Shown here piece by piece: positions 6,423-63,773 of a stretch of DNA of 64,000 bases. The notes beneath the pieces were generated by a model. The model was not told where the DNA came from, ran no database searches, and saw nothing but the letters and a program-made list of their open reading frames with translations. Every line of letters starts with the position of its first letter. Position 1 is the first letter of the stretch. Source of the stretch: Candidatus Yanofskybacteria bacterium (GTDB lineage: Bacteria; Patescibacteriota; Minisyncoccia; 2-02-FULL-40-12; IGHO2-01-FULL-4-A); NCBI GenBank assembly GCA_016181175.1, contig JACOZV010000002.1, positions 115 to 64,114 on the forward strand, read 5' to 3'. The translations under genes were made by a program, and so were the position numbers.

Positions 6423-6460
6423 AACTAATTTTATAATTTTTAATTTTATAATTTTATAAA

Positions 6461-6506
6461 TAATTTTTAATGTTTAAAAATTAAAACATTAAGATTTATT
6501 TAAAAA
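6461..6506. repeat. AT-rich intergenic repeat (copy a; reverse orientation) with the hairpin core TTAATGTTTAAAAATTAAAACATTAAGATTTATTTAAA
   Basis: Reverse complement of the TTTAAATAAATCTTAATGTTTTAATTTTTAAACATTA motif found at 10893-10975, 14045-14130 and 63690-63770. Lies in the rplJ-rplL spacer. Confidence 0.55.
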
Positions 6507-6513
6507 CTAAAAA

Positions 6514-6912
6514 TTGGAAATTAAAAATTTAAACAAAATGAACAAAGAGGATTTCATAAAGGATATTGAATCTATGTCTGTGGTCGAATTGAACGAATTA
6601 GTTAAGTCTCTTGAAGAGAAATTCGGTGTATCCGCCGCGGCTATGGCTGCGCCGGCAGCCGGAGCGGCAGCTGAAGAGGGAGTGGGAGCAGCCGAAGAAA
6701 AGGATAGCTTTTCGGTAATTTTGAAAGACGGGGGACAACAGAAGATACAAGTTATCAAGGTTGTTCGCGAAGTAACCGGCAAGGGTCTTAAAGAAGCCAA
6801 GGATTTGGTTGATGGCGTGCCGCAAACCGTCAAAGAAGGAGCCAAAAAAGAAGAGGCCGAGGAACTCAAAAAGAAGTTAGAAGATGCAGGCGCGACAGTG
6901 GAACTAAAATAA
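6514..6912 (+). CDS. rplL: 50S ribosomal protein L7/L12
   Basis: 132 aa; Ala-rich flexible hinge ([16 protein letters not shown]); C-terminal domain with the motif [20 protein letters not shown]. Confidence 0.92.
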
Positions 6913-10884: not shown

Positions 10885-10985
10885 ATTTTGTAATTTTGTA
10901 ATTTTGTAATTTTTAAATAAATCTTAATTTCTAAATGTTTAAAAATTAGGACATTATTTATAAAATTAAAAATTTAAAAATTGGT
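10885..10985. repeat. AT-rich intergenic repeat (copy b) preceded by the (TAATTTTG)x3.5 microsatellite
   Basis: CTGAATTTTGTAATTTTGTAATTTTGTAATTTTTAAATAAATCTTAAT...AAATGTTTAAAAATTAGGACATTATTTATAAAATTAAAAATT shares the TTTAAATAAATCTTAAT and AATGTTTAAAAATTA motifs with copies a, c and d. Lies in the mraZ-rsmH spacer. Confidence 0.5.
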
Positions 10986-12262: not shown

Positions 12263-14034
12263 TAGCTAGGAATATAAGAAGCGGAACACGGGCAAACGTA
12301 TTATTAATTGCCATATTTTTTTTAACAGGCCTAATCATTTATAGGCTTTTTAATTTAACTCTTGCCCAACATTCTGAATTTGTAAAATCAGCAAAAAGTC
12401 AGTACAGCAACCCATCGGCATTATTGGCCGGTCGGGGCAATATTTATTTTTCTGATATTGCTTCCAATGGTACTAAAATCGTTGCGACCAACAGATCTTC
12501 CTTTTTTGCGTATTCCAACAATTCCGCTATTTCTTTTGCCAAAGAGTTGGCGGAAAAAATAGCACCGATTTTAAACCAGAATAAAGATGTCCTGGAAGCA
12601 TTACTTTCACAAAAAGATAAAACTTACTTAGTTCTTGCCAGGAATCTGACAAAAAAACAAGCCGAAGCGATCAATGGTTTGAAAGTAAAAGGTTTGGCCG
12701 CCACTTCAGAAATAACTCGCTACTATGATGAAGTGTTTTCAGCGGCGCATGTTCTGGGTTTTGTCGGTTTTGATGGTAATCAGCGTGTTGGCCGCTCTGG
12801 TGTGGAATTTTCTTACGATAAAATATTGGGCGGCGAAACAAAAACGCTGGAAATTCTGGGTAACAAAACCTACTCGGATATTTTCAAATTTTTAAAATTT
12901 TGGAGAAAAGATGATGCCAAAAAAGAAAATGCTGAAGCAGAAGGCAACGAAGCAAAGCAAGATCTTAACATAGTTGGCAGCGATATTGTTTTAACAATTG
13001 ACCAAAATATACAGTCTGTAGTTGCATTAGCGTTAAACTCTGTTTTAAAAAAATGGAGCGCGCCGAGAGGTTCCATTATTGTGGAGGACCCGAATACTGG
13101 CGCAATACTAGCAATGGCTTCTTCACCCAGTTTTGACCCCAATAACTATTCGGAATATCAATTAAACGATTTTTTAAACCCCAATACTCAAGAAGTTTTT
13201 GAACCCGGCTCATCGTTTAAACCGGTTACAATGGCGGCCGCGTTGGATAGTGGCGTAATTACGCCAAATACAACTTATGATGACACCGGTGCGGTAAAAA
13301 TTGGCGGATATACAATTCGTAATTTCAATGAAAAAGCCAATGGGATTCAAACCATGCGGCAAGTATTGGAACATTCGCTAAACACGGGGGCAATTTTTGC
13401 GCAAGAAAAAACTGGAGATGATCAGTTTTTAAATTATGTGGTTAGTTTTGGTTTCGGTCAAAAAACCGGAATAGATTTAAATGCCGAAATTTCAGGCAAT
13501 ATCTCCAATCTTTACAGTGGCCGTAAAATAAATTTTTTGACTGCTTCATTCGGCCAAGGCATTGCGGTTACACCGCTTCAATTGGCAAATGCCTATTCAG
13601 CCATTGCAAACGGGGGGAAACTTATGCGGCCATATTTGGTAAAAGAAATAATGAGACCCGATGGAACTACAGTTAAGACGGAACCCAAAATTTTGGGCGC
13701 ACCCATAACAGAAAAAACTTCTGTTCAACTTAAATCCATGCTGGTTGATGTGGTAGACAAAGGGTTTGATAAGGCCAGGATTAAGGGATATGATGTAGCC
13801 GGTAAAACAGGCACGGCGCAAATCCCGGATCCTAGTGGGGGTGGCTATTTGGACAACGATCAGTTTGTACACGATTTTGTCGGTTTTGCTCCGGCTTATT
13901 CTCCAAGATTTGTAATTTTAATCAAAATGGAACGGCCAAAAGGAATTAAATTTGCCGCCGATAGTTTATCGCCGGTATTTGGGGATATAGCAAGATACCT
14001 TATTAGATACTTCAATATACCCCCAACAAGATGA
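12259..14034 (+). CDS. ftsI: Penicillin-binding protein 2/3 family transpeptidase (FtsI-like)
   Basis: 591 aa; N-terminal TM; transpeptidase motifs S-x-x-K (GSSFKP), S-x-N (HSLNTG) and K-T-G (KTGTA). Confidence 0.85.
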   Translation: MIARNIRSGTRANVLLIAIFFLTGLIIYRLFNLTLAQHSEFVKSAKSQYSNPSALLAGRGNIYFSDIASNGTKIVATNRSSFFAYSNNSAISFAKELAEKIAPILNQNKDVLEALLSQKDKTYLVLARNLTKKQAEAINGLKVKGLAATSEITRYYDEVFSAAHVLGFVGFDGNQRVGRSGVEFSYDKILGGETKTLEILGNKTYSDIFKFLKFWRKDDAKKENAEAEGNEAKQDLNIVGSDIVLTIDQNIQSVVALALNSVLKKWSAPRGSIIVEDPNTGAILAMASSPSFDPNNYSEYQLNDFLNPNTQEVFEPGSSFKPVTMAAALDSGVITPNTTYDDTGAVKIGGYTIRNFNEKANGIQTMRQVLEHSLNTGAIFAQEKTGDDQFLNYVVSFGFGQKTGIDLNAEISGNISNLYSGRKINFLTASFGQGIAVTPLQLANAYSAIANGGKLMRPYLVKEIMRPDGTTVKTEPKILGAPITEKTSVQLKSMLVDVVDKGFDKARIKGYDVAGKTGTAQIPDPSGGGYLDNDQFVHDFVGFAPAYSPRFVILIKMERPKGIKFAADSLSPVFGDIARYLIRYFNIPPTR

Positions 14035-14140
14035 AATTTTTAATTTCCAATTTTTAATTTTTAAATAAATCTTAATGTTTTAATTTTTAAACATTAGAAA
14101 TTATTTATAAAATTATAAAATTAAAAATTATATATCAGCC
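14035..14140. repeat. AT-rich intergenic repeat (copy c)
   Basis: AAATTTTTAATTTCCAATTTTTAATTTTTAAATAAATCTTAATGTTTTAATTTTTAAACATTAGAAATTATTTATAAAATTATAAAATTAAAAATTA is nearly identical to copy d at 63664-63773. It abuts the truncated murF. Confidence 0.6.
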
Positions 14141-14165: not shown

Positions 14166-15377
14166 GTGGGTAAGACTATGGCCAAAGAAGCGATTTTCAC
14201 GGTTTTGAGCCGCAAGTTTTGGGTAAGAAAAACTGAAGAAAATTTTAATAATGAATTTGGAGTGTCGGAAACAGTTATTGGGATTAATCCGCGCTTATCA
14301 ACTGCAAATCTAAGATTTAAAAATTGGTTACGGCTCTTAAAGTTCTGGAATCAGATTGTACCAGCTTTTTGGCTGGCATTTGGATTACCAAAGAAAAAAT
14401 ATCCCAAAGCGCTGGTCTTAGAGCTGGCTGCCGCCAAGCCCGGCGATATTGATTATTTGGCTGATATTGTCAGGCCGGAAATCGGTGTTATAACGGCGGT
14501 AGGCGAGGTGCCGGTGCATGTGGGGTTTTATGCAAGTCCGGAAGAGGTAGCTAAAGAAAAGTCCAAACTGATAACACGTCTGCCAGCGCATAATGGTTTG
14601 GCAGTGTTAAATTATGATGACCAAACGGTTTTAGATATGAAAGAAACTTTTGGTGCCAAAGTTGTGACGTTTGGTTTTTCTAACCTTGCCGATGTGTGGG
14701 CCTCTGATGTGTCATATTTTGCAGTTGATGATAACCAAAACATAGGCGGACTATCTTTTAAAATAAACAGCAAAAATACTTTTATTCCGATTAGGATTAA
14801 TAAATTCGCCGGCCAGCACCAGATATACGGTATTTTGGCGGCAACGGCGGTTGGTTTGCATTTTGGCATGAATCTGGTTGATATTGCAGGTGCGCTTGAA
14901 AATATAGATCTGCAACACGGACGCATGAACCTATTATCGGGAATTAAAAATTCGGTGGTTATTGATGATACCTACAATGCTTCCCCACTTTCAATGCATG
15001 GGGCGTTAGATGCGCTTAAAAATTTTACGAAGGCCAAGGAAGAATTAGGTCGGAAGGGCCGCAGAATCGCGGTATTGGGCGACATGAGAGAGTTGGGTAA
15101 ATATGAAATAGAAGCCCATCGTGCGATAGGGAACTTGGCCGCTGAATGTTGCGACTTATTGGTAACAGTCGGAAATGCCGCTAAGCTAATCGCTGACTCT
15201 GCGGCCAATCAGATGTCCAAGGAAAATATAATGAGTTTTAATACTTCCGAGGAGGCTAAATTAAAAGTGCAGGAAATGATTAAAGAAAATGATGTTGTAC
15301 TGGTGAAGGGGTCTAGAGCAATGAAAATGGAAAAAATAGTTGAAGAAATCGCACTTGATTCTCAAAAAAGTTTATAA
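14166..15377 (+). CDS. murF: UDP-MurNAc-pentapeptide synthetase MurF-like Mur ligase lacking the N-terminal domain. The annotated GTG start falls inside the P-loop, so this may be a pseudogene or use a non-canonical start.
   Basis: Central and C-terminal Mur-ligase domains (DDTYNASPLSMHGALDAL is MurF-type). The in-frame upstream sequence back to the stop at 14088 reads ...PTVIGITGSVGKTMAKE, so the GxxGxxGKT P-loop starts before any ATG/GTG/TTG. The ~90-aa N-terminal domain is absent. Confidence 0.6.
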   Translation: MGKTMAKEAIFTVLSRKFWVRKTEENFNNEFGVSETVIGINPRLSTANLRFKNWLRLLKFWNQIVPAFWLAFGLPKKKYPKALVLELAAAKPGDIDYLADIVRPEIGVITAVGEVPVHVGFYASPEEVAKEKSKLITRLPAHNGLAVLNYDDQTVLDMKETFGAKVVTFGFSNLADVWASDVSYFAVDDNQNIGGLSFKINSKNTFIPIRINKFAGQHQIYGILAATAVGLHFGMNLVDIAGALENIDLQHGRMNLLSGIKNSVVIDDTYNASPLSMHGALDALKNFTKAKEELGRKGRRIAVLGDMRELGKYEIEAHRAIGNLAAECCDLLVTVGNAAKLIADSAANQMSKENIMSFNTSEEAKLKVQEMIKENDVVLVKGSRAMKMEKIVEEIALDSQKSL

Positions 15378-15385
15378 CATTAAGG

Positions 15386-15545
15386 TTTGCTGACCGGCTA
15401 CGCGCGCGTGTTTTGCTGGCCCTTCGGGACAGGCGCAAAATACGCGCGCCTCCACCGGCAACAAACATCCTTTTCTCATCAATTATAAAAGTGATAAAAA
15501 CCGCCGATTGGTATCGGCTTTTGTTTTTAAGAATCAAATGCGATT
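15386..15545 (+). repeat. GC-rich structured 3' element (copy 1 of 2): a long imperfect hairpin with a CUUCGG apex plus a second hairpin and U-run
   Basis: CCGGCTACGCGCGCGTGTTTTGCTGG-CCCTTCGGG-ACAGGCGCAAAATACGCGCGCCTCCACCGG ... AAAACCGCCGATTGGTATCGGCTTTTG. It is about 85% identical to 29292-29465. Confidence 0.65.
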
Positions 15546-15599
15546 TCCTTGGGCGATAAACTAAAATAAAATTTAAAAACCCGCTAATTGCGAGTTTTG

Positions 15600-16505
15600 C
15601 TAGAGCTGGAGTAGCCAGTCAAATAGTAGTCTCCAGGCGTGCGGGATTTTGAGACGGCGGAGAATGTAGGGTAAAGCTACGCTGTCTTCGCCGTAAGGCA
15701 AATAAATTCTTACGGGGAAGCCCTCGCTTAGCAACTGGCGGCCCAGCGCCAAATAGCCGTGAAGCAATTGGAACTCTATGCAATTCTTATCCAGGATTCG
15801 GTGATTGGACTCAAAACATTTCCTAGCGTAGTCAATTATTTCCTTATCTCTGCTTGCAATGGCATGCACGGGTTCCATTATGCTTCGCAGTTTATTTCGT
15901 ATTGTGCCTAAAAAAGCCAGATTTATTAATAACTTAAAATTTTCCGTTATGTCTTCCTGGTTGTAAAATGACACATCCGATGCCTCTTCATAAGCGCCCT
16001 TTACCAATCTAACCGAGTGACCATGGCCATGTAGGAGATCCAAATTCTCAAAAGAATTTTTTATATTTGCTTGAAGACAGATGCGGTTTTTATCTTCTGG
16101 TTTGGATAAATTCTGAAAAATTTCAATCGTATCATGATTGTATTTAAATTCCTCCATATCAAATTCAACACCTACGCAGTTTCGGCTAGCATAACTGACT
16201 AAATCTTTGACAACGTTGAAGCAGTAGCCAAAGCCGAGCTCCATACCGAGATGGGTAAGCTTGATTGAAATTGTGGACTGAATGCCATACTTTTTAATAT
16301 CGTCCACGAGTTGTTTATATTCCGACAATGACTTTCCAACATTGTCTTCGTTTTTTGAATGTTCGCCAAGCACATCTATCGTAGTCAAAAATCCCTCTAC
16401 ATTTAGCCTGACCGCGACATTTAGAGCTTCTTGTCTAGTTTTACCGGCAATAAAAATTTTGCGCGGTAAAAATAGCATTGCTTTTGTGAATATGTTAATT
16501 TTCAA
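15600..16505 (-). CDS. Proline dehydrogenase family protein
   Basis: 301 aa with the motifs VRLVKGAY and EFQLLHGY, characteristic of the proline dehydrogenase family (from memory). Confidence 0.65.
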   Translation of the reverse strand: MKINIFTKAMLFLPRKIFIAGKTRQEALNVAVRLNVEGFLTTIDVLGEHSKNEDNVGKSLSEYKQLVDDIKKYGIQSTISIKLTHLGMELGFGYCFNVVKDLVSYASRNCVGVEFDMEEFKYNHDTIEIFQNLSKPEDKNRICLQANIKNSFENLDLLHGHGHSVRLVKGAYEEASDVSFYNQEDITENFKLLINLAFLGTIRNKLRSIMEPVHAIASRDKEIIDYARKCFESNHRILDKNCIEFQLLHGYLALGRQLLSEGFPVRIYLPYGEDSVALPYILRRLKIPHAWRLLFDWLLQL

Positions 16506-27369: not shown

Positions 27370-29283
27370 ATGAGCAAGGTACTTGGAATTGATTTGGGAA
27401 CAACTAATTCGGCGATGGCGATTGTGGAGATCGGACAGCCGAGAGTGCTGGAAAATAAGGAAGGGATGAGGACCACTCCTTCGGTGGTTGCTGTTGGTAA
27501 AAACGGCGAGCGTTATGTCGGCGTTACTGCCAAGCGCCAAGCCGTTACCAACCCCGCCAATACCATTTTTTCAGTTAAGAGGCTTATCGGTCGCCGTTTT
27601 TCAGATACAGAGGTTCAACACGACAAGAAGCTTCTGCCCTATGAGATTAAGGAGGGTTCAAATGGCGATGTAGAAGTAAAAATGCAGGAAAAATGGTATA
27701 AGCCTGCAGAAATCTCGGCAATGGTTTTGCAAAAATTAAAAACGGACACTGAAGATAAGCTTGGTGAGAAGATTACCGACGCTATTATTACAGTGCCCGC
27801 ATATTTTGACGACTCCCAGCGTAAAGCTACTAAAGACGCTGGTGAAATTGCCGGACTTAACGTTAAGCGCGTTATCAATGAACCGACAGCGGCCGCGCTT
27901 GCTTATGGTTTCAACAAGAAAAAAGATGAAAAAATTGTCGTCTACGACTTTGGCGGCGGAACTTTTGACGTTTCAGTGCTCGAGGTTTCCGAAGACACCA
28001 TAGAAGTCCGTAGTACTGGCGGAGATACCCATTTGGGGGGAGATGATATTGACCAGAAGATTATCCAATATCTAATTGATGAATTTAAAAAAGAAAATGG
28101 CGTGGACATAAGCAAAGATCAGTTGGCGGTTCAGCGTCTCAAGGATGCGGCGGAAAAAGCAAAGCACGAGTTATCAAGCACGATGCAGACAGAAATTAAT
28201 ATTCCTTTTTTGACCGCCGATGCTTCCGGGCCTAAGCATTTCAGCATGTCGTTTACGCGAGCCAAACTTGATGATTTAGTCAAAGACTATATTGATAAAT
28301 CGATAGAATTAACCAGTAAAACCGTAGAAGAAGCGGGGCTTAAAATGTCTGACATAAACGAGGTAATTCTTGTTGGTGGTCAGACCAGAATGCCAGCTAT
28401 TATTGAGGCGGTTAAAAAATTATTCGGCAAAGAACCGCACAAAGACATAAATCCTGATGAAGTTGTGGCAATAGGCGCGGCAATTCAGGGCGGTATAATG
28501 CAGGGTGATATTCGCGATGTATTACTGCTTGACGTAACTCCTCTTTCACTTGGCATAGAGACTCTCGGTGGCGTAATGACCAAAATGATAGAGAAAAACA
28601 CCACCGTGCCGACTGCCAAGACCCAAACATTTTCAACGGCGGCAGATAATCAGCCATCAGTTGAAATACACGTATTGCAAGGCGAGCGGGCAATGTCAGC
28701 GGACAATAAAACGCTTGGCAAGTTTATTCTGGATGGTATTCCGCCTGCTCCGCGCGGTGTGCCGCAGGTTGAAGTGACTTTTGACATTGATGTTAACGGT
28801 ATTTTGAATGTAAAAGCCAAGGACAAGGCAACAAACAAAGAGCAGTCTATTAGGATTGAGGGATCGTCTGGATTGACAGATGAAGAAAAGAAAAAAATGA
28901 CAGCCGAAGCGGAAAAATTTGCCGCCGAAGATGCCAAGAAAAAAGAGCTGGTTGATTCTTGCAATATGGCGGAGACATTGGTTTATTCGACGGAAAAAGC
29001 AATGAAAGATGCGGGGGATAAGATAAGTGCCGAGGAACGCAAAAATATTGAAGACAAAATGGCAGCTCTAAACGAAGCTAAGAAAAGTGAAGACGTTGGC
29101 ATAATTAAAAAAGCCACAGAAGAATTGTCCGTGGCAGCGCAGAAAATAGGGGAAATATTGTATAAGCAATCAACCCCGAAAAGTGGTGATGCCACCTCGG
29201 GGCAGGCAGGGGAGCAGAAGCCGGAGGAGAAACCAGAGAGCGAGGAGTTAAAAGAGGAAGACCAAAAAACAGGGGGAAAATAG
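27370..29283 (+). CDS. dnaK: Molecular chaperone DnaK (Hsp70)
   Basis: [28 protein letters not shown] and the rest of the Hsp70 signature. The start was trimmed to the conserved Met. Confidence 0.95.
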
Positions 29284-29291
29284 ATAGTTCG

Positions 29292-29465
29292 CCGTTTTGC
29301 TGTCCGGCTACGCGCGCGTGTTTTGCTGGCCCTTCGGGACAGGAGCAAAACGCGCGCGCCTCCGCCGGAAAATCCGTCGGGCTAGTACTTTTCTTAGCAA
29401 TTTGCGAACGATAAAAGCCGCCGATTGGTATCGGCTTATGGTTTGTAATTTTTTAGTAAATAAAA
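29292..29465 (+). repeat. GC-rich structured 3' element (copy 2 of 2)
   Basis: CCGGCTACGCGCGCGTGTTTTGCTGG-CCCTTCGGG-ACAGGAGCAAAACGCGCGCGCCTCCGCCGG ... AAAAGCCGCCGATTGGTATCGGCTTATGGTTTGTAATTTTTT. Same element as 15386-15545, here downstream of dnaK. Confidence 0.65.
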
Positions 29466-29517
29466 ATCAGGATTTCTCCTGATTACCAGACCCTCCTGTC
29501 TATTTCATGCCTTCTTT

Positions 29518-29820
29518 TTAGTTTTCTGGACAAGTCAACAATACAGAACACTCACAACTTCTAGCCTGCCCATCTGAAGCTCTCAATATAACATCTGATG
29601 CCAAAATTTTTAAACCGCCAGATTCAAGCATTCGTTGTACTGAATCGAAGATTTCTGATGTACTGACGCTTACCTTATCTTTTTTCTCTAGGGAGTAACG
29701 AATTGCTGATGTATTAATAAATACCACAACATTAGTTGAAATATTGTTAGCAAGATATGGAGCAATAAAACTGTTTGTTTCTTCTTTGTTTAGCCCGTGC
29801 TTAATAGTAGTAGATGCCAT
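29518..29820 (-). CDS. Hypothetical protein (100 aa)
   Basis: Clean ORF between dnaK and dnaJ on the opposite strand; no family recognised. Confidence 0.4.
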   Translation of the reverse strand: MASTTIKHGLNKEETNSFIAPYLANNISTNVVVFINTSAIRYSLEKKDKVSVSTSEIFDSVQRMLESGGLKILASDVILRASDGQARSCECSVLLTCPEN

Positions 29821-29881
29821 TTTCCACCTCTTTTTTAAAGAAAAGACGGATATGTTAAAATACTAACAAATAGAAAAAATT

Positions 29882-31003: not shown

Positions 31004-31074
31004 TATGAAATTTGTAATTTTTGACTAAACGCGTTATTTTAGTTTCATGATTTTTGACAACCAAGGAGAGCTAG

Positions 31075-39947: not shown

Positions 39948-39972
39948 TACTTAGGAGTTGAACTCCTAAGTA
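39948..39972. repeat. REP-like 25-bp palindrome (left flank of the HUH transposase gene)
   Basis: TACTTAGGAGTTGAACTCCTAAGTA. Confidence 0.7.
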
Positions 39973-39993: not shown

Positions 39994-40641
39994 ATGATAA
40001 AACCCAAATTTACAACTGGCGAGTTTTACCACATATTCAATAGGGGAAATAATAAGAGGGCGATTTTTTTGAAACCATTTGATTTAATGAGGTTTTTGCA
40101 AAGTATGCAGGAGTTTAATACCAAAGAACCAATTGGCAGTATTTATATCAATTCATTCAAAAACGAAGAACTTAGAAGTTCAACTCCAAAGTTAGAGAAA
40201 ATAGTTGATTTTGTATGCTACTGTTTAAACCAAAATCATTTCCACATTCTTATTAAACAAATAGCGGATGGTGGTATAATTAAGTTTATGCATAGACTTG
40301 GTACTGGATACACAAACTATTTTAATGGAAAGAATAAAACTAGCGGAGCTTTATTCCAGGGGAGATATAAAGCTATCCATGTAGATACTAACGAGTACCT
40401 ACTTTATTTAAGTGCCTACATTAATCTGAATTACAAAGTCCACCAACTTAGGAGTTCAACTCCTAAGTTGTGTAAATCAAGCTGGGAGGAATACACTAAT
40501 GTCATGAATGGATTTTGTAATAAAAAAATAATTATGTCGCAGTTTAACAGTGCGGCAAATTATAAAGATTTTGCCGAGGAAGCTTTAAAAATAATAAGAA
40601 ACAGAAAGGATATGGAAAAATCTCTAAACCTTATCACTTAG
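39994..40641 (+). CDS. tnpA: HUH Y1 transposase, IS200/IS605 TnpA-like / REP-associated tyrosine transposase (RAYT)-like
   Basis: HuH motif HFHILI, catalytic Tyr context GALFQGRYK, N-terminal YHIFNRGNNKRAIF. Flanked by identical palindromes. Two internal copies of the palindrome are translated in-frame as LRSSTPKL (aa 59-67 and 152-160). The stop codon lies inside the right palindrome. Confidence 0.7.
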   Translation: MIKPKFTTGEFYHIFNRGNNKRAIFLKPFDLMRFLQSMQEFNTKEPIGSIYINSFKNEELRSSTPKLEKIVDFVCYCLNQNHFHILIKQIADGGIIKFMHRLGTGYTNYFNGKNKTSGALFQGRYKAIHVDTNEYLLYLSAYINLNYKVHQLRSSTPKLCKSSWEEYTNVMNGFCNKKIIMSQFNSAANYKDFAEEALKIIRNRKDMEKSLNLIT

Positions 40642-55217: not shown

Positions 55218-56121
55218 TTATTTTTCCGAACCTTCCTTTATAAAAATCTAATACCCCAGCTAATATTGCTTTTGATATTTCAACATTGTGCCTCAATATA
55301 ATTTTAGTGAGCTGTTTAATTATAATAAAAAATGACCAAAATGGCAAGGAGAATTTAACCCAAAACGGCCCATTTTTACAGTTAAATAAGTGAGCATTTC
55401 TGTAGTGGTAGTGGAGTAATATGGGTGCTCCCAATGATGAGGTAGACGACGATTGTTTATGATGAATCAGTTCTTCAGGCACAATTTTGAGCTTGTAGCC
55501 CGCTTTTTGCGCGCGCAGGCAGTAATCAGCATCTTCAAAATAGAGAAAATAGCGTTCATCAAACAATCCAATCTTTTCTAAAACTTCTCGTTTGATAAGC
55601 ATACAAGCTCCTACAACATACTTAGTGGTTGAACTACTAAGTGCACTTAGTAGTTCAACCACTAAGTGCGAAAGTTCGGGTTTTAGCCAGCCAATTTTGC
55701 CGCCATAAATTATTTGGTTACCCTCGTTTATTGCGGGTCCTGCAATGCCTATTTGCTGATCAGATTCTGTTGCTTCTACTAATTTTGATAACGCATCCTT
55801 TCTAATTGTCGTATCGGGGTTCAATATCAAGACATAATCAGCGCCATGCTCTAACGCATGTTTGATACCCAGATTATTTCCGCCAGAATAACCAGAGTTG
55901 TAAGAAGTAGTAAGTAAAAAGTAACAAGTAGCAGAACTTGTATTGCCTGTTTTTTCTATCCAATTTCTAACCTCGTCGATTGCATTGACATCTGAGCCGT
56001 TATCCACTATAATTGTCTCATAGTTCTGATAGTCCAGTTCTTTAACAGAATTAAGGCACCTAATGGTGTCTTGAGAATTATTATATTGGAGGATGACAAT
56101 GAAAACTTTAGATTGATTCAT
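55210..56121 (-). CDS. Family 2 glycosyltransferase with an in-frame REP-like palindrome doublet
   Basis: GT-A N-terminus (VFIVILQYNNSQDTIRCLNSV). The 46-bp palindrome at 55621-55666 is translated as LVVELLSALSSSTTK. Confidence 0.75.
   Translation of the reverse strand: MNQSKVFIVILQYNNSQDTIRCLNSVKELDYQNYETIIVDNGSDVNAIDEVRNWIEKTGNTSSATCYFLLTTSYNSGYSGGNNLGIKHALEHGADYVLILNPDTTIRKDALSKLVEATESDQQIGIAGPAINEGNQIIYGGKIGWLKPELSHLVVELLSALSSSTTKYVVGACMLIKREVLEKIGLFDERYFLYFEDADYCLRAQKAGYKLKIVPEELIHHKQSSSTSSLGAPILLHYHYRNAHLFNCKNGPFWVKFSLPFWSFFIIIKQLTKIILRHNVEISKAILAGVLDFYKGRFGKINA
55621..55666. repeat. Perfect 46-bp palindrome made of two inverted REP-like units (CTTAGTGGTTGAACTACTAAG / CTTAGTAGTTCAACCACTAAG). 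It is related to the RAYT-flanking palindrome CTTAGGAGTTGAACTCCTAAG.
   Basis: CTTAGTGGTTGAACTACTAAGTG|CACTTAGTAGTTCAACCACTAAG; the second half is the exact reverse complement of the first. Confidence 0.8.
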
Positions 56122-59767: not shown

Positions 59768-60120
59768 CCACTCGCAACTGCAAAAATTACAAACCCAAAC
59801 TTACCCCCGATTTTCTTACAACTTCATATCTGTCTACAAACATACGCAAAGCTCGCTAAATTGTCGGACACAAGTTGGTTCCCCTATCGGCTTGTTTTCT
59901 GCGCGTTTTTCGACCAGCCGTTGTGTTACCAGACAATTTTAACACTCGTTTTGCTAATTTGCTTCGCCCCGTAGCGAGCTTCGCTCTGCTACTAGGGTTA
60001 GTTGACATATGAATGACGAAAATCAGATGGCTTCGCTTGTTCCCGGTTTGTAATTTTTGAACTTGATGCTTCATTGCGTTAGTCACACGGATTAGGGTAG
60101 AGGAATTTATATTTTATAGC

Positions 60121-63663: not shown

Positions 63664-63773
63664 ATTAGGAATTAATTTTTAATTTCCAATTTTTAAATAA
63701 ATCTTAATGTTTTTAATTTTTAAACATTAGAAATTATTTATAAAATTATAAATTATAAAATTATGTTTAAAAG
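63664..63773. repeat. AT-rich intergenic repeat (copy d) in the rpsK-rpsD spacer
   Basis: CAAATTAGGAATTAATTTTTAATTTCCAATTTTTAAATAAATCTTAATGTTTTTAATTTTTAAACATTAGAAATTATTTATAAAATTATAAATTATAAAATTA is nearly identical to copy c. Confidence 0.6.

Follow-up and report, generated by a model that had tools for sequence, protein, structure and literature searches.

A family of mosaic palindromic repeats at gene 3' ends in Candidatus Yanofskybacteria

Two structured, non-coding elements in a 64,000-nt stretch of a Candidatus Yanofskybacteria genome (contig JACOZV010000002.1; this whole stretch is hereafter called the window) belong to a multicopy family, of which at least 39 copies were found in at least seven Yanofskybacteria assemblies and in metagenome contigs. 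Members of the family sit at gene 3' ends, mostly between convergent genes, where they can extend into a flanking gene and replace its terminal codons along with its stop codon; their pairing is kept by two-sided changes, they are gained and lost at orthologous sites, and they exchange modules with one another, namely the upper part of a long hairpin (P1) and a second, terminator-like hairpin (P2). The element is probably a lineage-specific, non-coding mosaic palindromic repeat of the MITE/REP-like kind that is spread and exchanged as DNA and persists at gene 3' ends by way of a two-way terminator and a stable 3' structure.

A preliminary description of this DNA had placed two copies, about 85% identical, after stop codons at 15386-15545 (copy A) and 29292-29465 (copy B). 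Homologous copies with an identical run of 40 nt are indeed present at both places. Their identity amounts to 92% over 76 nt (15386-15461 and 29296-29371) and to 91% over 35 nt around the second hairpin (15493-15527 and 29410-29444) in a repeat search of the window, and the mean column identity of the whole pairwise alignment is 81%. The 32-mer GCGCGCGTGTTTTGCTGGCCCTTCGGGACAGG has two exact matches in the 64-kb window, both of them + strand (15402 and 29312), and none in 100 dinucleotide shuffles. As first delimited, the copies have folding z-scores of -4.5 and -3.5 and begin 9-12 nt after the stop codon of the upstream ORF, a Mur ligase (14166-15377) for copy A and dnaK (27370-29283) for copy B. 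While the places held good, the limits did not: the closing helix and the covariance model described below extend copy A to about 15345-15549 and copy B to about 29273-29456 (Table 1). The genome, presented as AT-rich, is only moderately so, the G+C content of the window being ~40%. Both copies occupy gaps between convergent genes, copy A facing a proline-dehydrogenase gene (Pro_dh; 15600-16505, - strand) and copy B a 100-codon ORF (ORF100; 29518-29820, - strand).

Table 1. Coordinates of the two window copies and of their parts (position 1 is the first letter of the window)
Feature	Coordinates	Strand	Remarks
Copy A, whole, type-1 linker	15345..15549	+	Match to covariance model R1 at 15354-15538, 154 bits
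Copy A, left arm	15345..15368	+	Within the last murF codons (E-I-A-L-D-S-Q-K); pairs with 15524-15547
Copy A, P1	15385..15466	+	Outer helix, foot CCGGC/ACCGG, internal loop UAC/CUCC, GC stem
Copy A, upper part of P1	within 15385..15466	+	UUUUGC/GCAAAA, then apex GGCCCUUCGGGAC
Copy A, linker AACAUCCUUUUCUCAUCAAUUAUAAAAGUGAUAAAAACC	15467..15502	+	90% identical to the L086 ortholog
Copy A, P2 GCCGATTGGTATCGGC and U-tract	15503..15528	+	Terminator-like on both strands; on the other strand followed by GGTTTTTATC
Copy A, right arm	15524..15547	+	Extended fold, arm comparison
Copy B, whole, type-2 linker	29273..29456	+	Match to covariance model R1, 142 bits
Copy B, left arm	within 29273..29456	+	Degenerate; overlaps the dnaK stop codon at 29281-29283
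Copy B, P1	29303..29369	+	Predicted fold
Copy B, P2	29420..29435	+	Bidirectional, terminator-like (consensus scan)
Copy B, right arm GGTTTGTAATTTTTTA	29440..29455	+	Family consensus is GGTTTGTAATTTTTGA

A full copy, given as 158-283 or 175-285 nt long, can be divided into a closing helix, hairpin P1, an A/U-rich linker that is conserved and the hypervariable hairpin P2. The terminal arms are inverted with respect to each other and close the whole unit (consensus CAAAAATTACAAAC / GTTTGTAATTTTTG); the 5' arm reads (T)CAAAAATTACAAAC and is followed by a spacer of ~15 nt, and the 3' arm is GGTTTGTAATTTTTGA. P1 comprises an outer helix with a foot CCGGC/GCCGG, an asymmetric internal loop UAC/CUCC and a 7-bp GC stem, above which stand UGUUUUGC/GCAAAACG and the apex UGG-CCCUUCGGG-ACAGGC. 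Conserved CTAC and CTCC motifs (GTAG and GGAG on the other strand) flank the GC stem, and the asymmetric internal loops UAC/CUCC and GG/ACAGGC are preserved rather than 'corrected' to perfect palindromes. Between P1 and the linker, which exists in two subtypes, one in each window copy (Table 1), there is an optional small hairpin of variable length. No fewer than five GC hairpins of unrelated sequence take the P2 slot; each has GATAAAAA before it and a U-rich tail after it, the frame GATAAAAA-hairpin-UU..GGUUUGUAAUUUUU being kept while the sequence of the hairpin is replaced. With a GC hairpin, a U-tract after it and an A-tract before it, P2 fits the layout of intrinsic terminators; a consensus scan scored it as terminator-like on both strands in both window copies, and P2 looks like a putative bidirectional intrinsic terminator. 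Folding predicts the two hairpins that had been proposed at the outset, the long one capped by CCCUUCGGG and the GCCGA-TTGGTA-TCGGC hairpin with its U-run; missing from that account were the terminal inverted arms, the overlap with gene ends, the convergent setting and the two-way character of the putative terminator.

The window copies are worn members of the family. In copy A the consensus inner arms are lost, and a 22-bp helix joining 15345-15368 to 15524-15547, found in both the MFE and the centroid fold (z -6.2), closes the unit in their place; in copy B the consensus 3' arm (29440-29455) is kept, the 5' arm overlaps the end of dnaK, and the pairing between the two is gone. RNAduplex energies set against shuffles lend no support to an additional helix that would join the 5' spacer to the linker (mean z -0.44 over 31 copies). 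ORFs across the element are antisense artefacts that differ between copies, which marks the element as non-coding. The two antisense ORFs of the window (15313-15537 and 28983-29348), their ends differing between the copies, are as claimed mere translations of the repeat; they were rejected as genes because their starts and ends do not match and because the covariation of the stems would change their residues. Small extra hairpins are seen within some copies (L010 2178-2232, L019 at ~7600, L029 and L015/L025; L numbers denote the loci examined) and are bordered by short direct duplications, CAGG in L010 and CTTCG in L019, a sign that palindromes may arise locally or that mini-insertions become nested. 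At 31009-31024, 6 nt past the dnaJ stop codon, a sequence like the 3' arm (AATTTGTAATTTTTGA) stands alone, with no recognisable element body.

Relatives of the window genome supplied most of the family. An exact scan of one genome per species with the apical 20-mer TGCTGGCCCTTCGGGACAGG returned 27 loci, 25 of which are clear homologues from five Yanofskybacteria-type assemblies (nine in JACOZZ, six in CAYHQI, five in JBGQJN, four in JACPNJ and one in MGJI); the loci in Desulfomonile and Dehalococcoidia were rejected as chance matches. A metagenome scan with the pattern CTCCGCCGGTARA...GATAAAAA, which is independent of P1, added eight copies, several of them with different P1 tops. The covariance model R1, built from 13 full copies, recovers 37 forward-strand copies in the loci examined, two of them in the window, and detects in addition the copies at L086 and L087. 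Many metagenome contigs end within or beside the element, as assemblies do at repeats. The possibility that only two copies exist fails once relatives are searched. Three readings had been put forward at the outset, a 3'-UTR sRNA, an mRNA stabiliser or RNase barrier, and a mobile REP-like unit; that of a repeat family is borne out by the copy number, by presence and absence at orthologous sites and by strong covariation, an sRNA or stabiliser role being at most a possibility.

No counterpart of the family is on record in Rfam or the other collections searched. At the gathering threshold, tRNAs were all that Rfam 15 found in the window and 17 loci holding full copies, and under permissive settings the best matches to copy A had E-values of 1.6-7. 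Phage records, plasmid records and viral contigs held no matches to the element, and a phage, plasmid or virus origin was rejected on that ground. In the literature we found no description of such elements, or of interspersed repeat families, for CPR bacteria. On the best reading, the family is uncatalogued and of a kind already known, that of MITE/REP-like palindromic repeats.

The structural covariation check recommended in the preliminary description gave a strong result. Standard pairs make up 95.1% of cells in the 37-copy alignment, where 27 of 41 pairs change on both sides; two-sided changes are seen in 13 of the 14 arm pairs. None of 500 shuffles reaches any of five pairing measures, and sliding the partners by 1-3 columns lowers pairing to 30-58%. 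The arms switch jointly from TTACAA/TTGTAA to TTGCAA/TTGCAA or TTAAAA/TTTTAA, and the closing helix of L086 is kept by a two-sided change from ATCGCA/TGCGAT to ATTGCA/TGCAAT. Larger replacements are found in L014b, L025b, L062, L060 and L086, where the entire upper P1 has given way to other complementary sequence, while CCGGCUAC...CUCCGCCGG or a compensated CCAGC/GCUGG is kept. The maintained pairing shows selection or templated correction acting on a folding nucleic acid, be it RNA or DNA. Of 34 copies, 29 carry one fixed U.G pair on the + strand. When the two fixed U.G pairs are set aside, G.U has no clear excess over A.C (29 against 19), and for 27 of 31 P1 hairpins the better predicted fold is that of the minus strand, such that neither wobble counts nor folding energies give a plus-strand RNA signature.

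The genomic setting was called for 27 copies with crude ORFs of at least 100 codons. Among the 21 copies that could be classified, 11 lie between convergent genes, nine between tandem genes (six in sense and three in antisense orientation) and one between divergent genes. The 5' arm mostly begins a few nucleotides from the upstream stop codon, and in copy A, L086 and L016 the arms hold the last codons and stop codons of flanking genes. The consequence for the protein is visible in MurF: at the empty site of L085 it ends in ...IVEEIKAR* and lacks the tail of the filled sites, where the proteins end in ...IVEEIALDSQKSL and ...IVSEIAFDSQKNN, from which the element appears to have supplied both tail and stop codon. 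DnaK C-terminal tails are too variable for the share of copy B in the last codons to be assigned. We note that the MurF-type ORF (14166-15377) is short, with 399-403 codons as against 420-460 in relatives, and that Pfam aligns it with Mur_ligase_M from profile position 54 onward; its N-terminus may have been shortened next to an AT-rich repeat at 14034-14132.

Presence and absence of the element differ at three orthologous sites, dnaK-dnaJ, murF/Pro_dh and rplU. The dnaK-dnaJ gap is 598 nt long in the window, where it contains copy B and the reverse ORF100, and shrinks to 11 nt in L083 (DnaK 94% identical) and to 33 nt in L084, the two relatives checked; two further relatives carry other insertions in this gap. 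The murF and Pro_dh genes overlap by 4 nt in L085 and stand 222 nt apart in the window, and the element found 3' of rplU in L010 has no equivalent in the window, where the same two genes abut. Since dnaK directly neighbours dnaJ in the nearest relatives, and different small ORFs part them in others, the dnaK-dnaJ spacer (of which 29457-29881 is the stretch beyond copy B in the window) looks, from these sequence comparisons, like an insertion hot spot. ORF100 itself has no Pfam match, possesses a terminator-like hairpin of its own (29465-29484), is absent from relatives and is unlike the small ORFs found at the same spot in L006. The same spacer houses a third long hairpin element in assembly CAYHQI (L001 4920-5110 and L002 4920-5130), whose outer arms (GCTCGTCCCTCATCA...) resemble the extended outer arms GCTCGCCCCTCATC-AAAAATTAC of some copies of the main family.

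Some copies are old. An orthologous copy follows murF in L086 and L087 (MurF 71% identical), where the MurF tail (DSQK...) is shared, P2 and the arms show compensated changes, and the upper P1 is entirely different; between copy A and L086 the linker is 90% identical, as compared with 74% for murF DNA and 65% for Pro_dh DNA. Likewise, an orthologous copy is common to L022, L034 and L075, next to a gene that is 74.5% identical; its P1 apex does not differ among them, and its P2 hairpins are unrelated. Linker and apex are thus 90-100% identical between orthologs whose flanking genes are only 65-75% identical, which argues for a constraint beyond selfish spread, and copies from at least six species have one and the same 34-nt apex, down to its unpaired bases. 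The modules evolve at very unequal rates: conservation of the linker and of the foot and apex of P1 contrasts with free replacement of P2 and swapping of the upper P1.

In single-stranded form, whether RNA or DNA, a full copy of this mosaic palindromic repeat would fold into a rod that the inverted terminal arms close. Spread as DNA may be due to a trans-acting enzyme, or to recombination or template switching at palindromes, and after insertion a copy would be tolerated or retained because P2 serves as a two-way intrinsic terminator; we propose that retention at 3' ends follows from this terminator together with the very stable 3' structure in which the murF and dnaK transcripts would end here. 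The conserved foot and apex of P1 could be a protein recognition site, either for the mobilising enzyme or for an RNA-binding factor. The family resembles MITEs in being short, non-coding and present in many copies, with terminal inverted repeats and presence/absence polymorphism. Comparison of 33 pairs of flanks revealed no consistent direct repeat indicative of target-site duplication; in some of these pairs a CTCGC motif is present on either side and may belong to longer arms. No larger element combining the same arms with a transposase gene was found in ~0.55 Mb of sequence, and the arm matches in the window and L001-L034 (~0.29 Mb) included no cognate IS. In contrast to classical MITEs, the termini are less conserved than the interior with its P1 apex and linker, and the outer arms of some copies are locus-specific and even coding. 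It is the apparent lack of a target duplication and of a partner IS, the conserved interior and the locus-specific arms that keep three rival explanations alive. 'Empty' arm palindromes, of the kind indicative of insertion into a pre-existing hairpin, were not found in the window and 34 loci. We also observed a second element family (59781-60059 on the + strand, a partial inverted copy at 22541-22588, and L024 6942-7293), 280-350 nt long, with the same arms (CAAAAATTACAAACC ... GGTTTGTAATTTTTGA), an unrelated interior and a fold z-score of -5.1.

A functional structured RNA, acting in cis as a 3'-UTR module or processed into a 3'-UTR-derived sRNA, is an unlikely explanation that nevertheless accounts for several of these observations. 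On this view, a protein or another RNA would bind the invariant apex and foot of P1, protection of the ends would fall to the closing helix and P2, and the many genes served would be reflected in the copy number. The identity of the 34-nt apex across at least six species, including orthologs beside the 74.5%-identical gene, speaks for such a role, as do the preserved asymmetric loops UAC/CUCC and GG/ACAGGC, the 90% identity of the ortholog linker next to genes of 65-74%, the U.G pair fixed on the + strand in 29 of 34 copies, the two-sided change that keeps the closing helix although one arm is coding, and the hairpins of variable length at fixed points, which many structured RNAs possess. However, the upstream sequence holds nothing conserved that is promoter-like, the wobble counts outside the two fixed pairs (29 against 19) and the predicted better folding of the minus strand do not point to RNA, three of the nine tandem-gene copies run antisense to their neighbours, orthologs differ by wholesale exchange of the upper P1, and Rfam offers no match. 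In its most developed form, which we regard as similarly doubtful, the element would represent a new kind of structured RNA module, confined to CPR bacteria and placed at the 3' end of ~10-30 transcripts in each genome, its P1 apex and foot bound by a dedicated protein (e.g. for stabilisation, processing or localisation) and its closing helix selected even where an arm encodes a C-terminus, mobility being only the means of distribution. Quite improbable, in our estimate, is an element of the REP/REPIN or IS200/IS605 type, moved as single-stranded DNA by a Y1 HUH transposase that would recognise P1 as its hairpin and use the CTAC/CTCC at the foot of P1 (on the opposite strand, GTAG/GGAG) for cleavage or guidance. 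A RayT-like Y1_Tnp gene does occur in the window (39994-40638, + strand; Pfam 29.4 bits against a cutoff of 23, HUH motif HFH), its homologues are common in Patescibacteria (some bear the JGI name 'REP element-mobilizing transposase RayT'), and the apparent lack of target-site duplication, the conservation of a hairpin rather than of termini and the tetranucleotides at the hairpin foot all agree with this mode of transfer. Yet the gene is flanked by a different palindrome, CTTAGGAGTTGAACTCCTAAG, unlike P1, P2 or the arms, and occurs at none of the element loci fetched; copies number tens per genome, not hundreds; and on the GTAG strand the motif lies 3' of the hairpin, whereas in E. coli REPs GTAG lies 5' of it. 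The 21-nt palindrome CTTAGGAGTTGAACTCCTAAG is found at 39950, 40171, 40447 and 40637, as a doublet at 55621/55646, and in L010 at 6508; two of its copies lie in frame inside the RayT-like ORF, where they encode ELRSSTPKL and QLRSSTPKL.

The covariation could also be neutral, the outcome of template-switch 'correction' of a DNA quasi-palindrome and of outward growth of inverted repeats, with recognition by any factor playing no part. The locus-specific arms that look like inverted neighbouring coding sequence (copy A of the window, L086, L016), the short hairpin insertions with their bordering duplications (CAGG in L010, CTTCG in L019) and the wobble pairs devoid of strand asymmetry are what such a process might leave behind, but it is very improbable given that the asymmetric loops and bulges are invariant where correction would erase them, that the unpaired linker is the best-conserved segment between orthologs, and that the apex is identical across species. 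Least credible of all is an integron attC-like recombination site carrying small cassettes, such as ORF100 beside copy B. An imperfect inverted repeat of variable length at gene 3' ends is reminiscent of attC, and copy B arrived with, or next to, a small reverse ORF (29518-29820) that relatives lack. The attC core sites follow the R''/R' consensus RYYYAAC ... GTTRRRY, which the arms (...TACAAAC / GTTTGTA...) do not fit; moreover, copies are single and dispersed beside housekeeping genes rather than in arrays, most have no associated accessory ORF, and none of the 57 window ORFs scanned is an integrase. The misfit of the core sites, the want of arrays and the absence of an integrase among the window ORFs scanned essentially exclude an attC-like role.

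Known palindromic repeats offer partial parallels to a mosaic repeat of this kind. Rickettsia palindromic elements (RPE) are repeats of a reduced genome that can become coding and that insert in frame inside genes, whereas the Yanofskybacteria element supplies only the last few codons and the stop codon. They are listed in a review of such families (PMC3184786), which also covers bcr1 of the Bacillus cereus group, a ~155-bp repeat that forms two stem-loops in a closed cruciform and is known to be transcribed; like the present family, bcr1 keeps its fold by compensatory changes and is patchily distributed between relatives (PMC3184786), but it is flanked by 5-bp direct repeats, none of which are seen around the Yanofskybacteria element. 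SPRITE repeats are terminator-like and biased to convergent 3' ends (PMC3184786, PMC10969869, PMC3049150). They belong to another lineage and were compared by description, not by sequence; the Yanofskybacteria element is 2-3 times longer and adds to the SPRITE plan a conserved long hairpin, closing arms and a hypervariable terminator hairpin. REP/BIME sequences, which affect mRNA stability, share the GC-rich palindromes, the mosaic modules and the preference for convergent genes (PMC3184786), although REPs are ~25-40 nt long and number hundreds of copies. The GTAG-type motif by the P1 stem recalls the REP tetranucleotide, but its arrangement and the length of the element differ from those of described REPs. 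The RayT-like gene of the window brings REPIN-RAYT systems to mind, with the difference that it is bordered here by CTTAGGAGTTGAACTCCTAAG and not by P1, P2 or the arms. MITEs such as Correia/nemis, ERIC and RUP are alike in size, terminal inverted repeats, non-coding nature and intergenic location, BOX elements are alike in their modular build, and MITEs and BOX are co-transcribed with their neighbours (PMC3184786, PMC10969869). Classical MITEs differ from the present family, in which no consistent target-site duplication or matching IS was found, the termini are less conserved than the interior and outer arms can be locus-specific.

Patescibacteria/CPR genomes of ~1 Mb are tightly packed, and little is known of how their expression is organised. 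In this setting the element remodels gene ends, splitting the dnaK-dnaJ operon, parting overlapping convergent genes, donating stop codons and, by prediction, terminators, and it breaks metagenome assemblies. The covariance model is ready for use in annotation, and the element may serve as a marker for strain-level variation. Should P2 terminate in both directions, transcript 3' ends would be expected at the U-tract on the + strand and at UUUUUAUC on the - strand; were the RNA reading true, the element would provide a handle on 3'-end biology in an uncultured phylum.

The window contains further repeats. An AT-rich family of ~95 nt is represented at 6432-6530, 10891-10983, 14034-14132 and 63672-63764; two of its copies are inverted and 98% complementary, and one lies between a PBP gene and the Mur-ligase ORF. 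Two 56-nt inverted arms (24047-24102 and 24174-24229), 77% complementary and 71 nt apart, sit between the cysteinyl-tRNA synthetase and Nramp genes. Finally, the region 21760-22416 consists of 18 tandem units of 36 nt, equivalent to 12 codons each (AGyAACCCA...GAGTGAGCC), and overlaps minus-strand ORFs.
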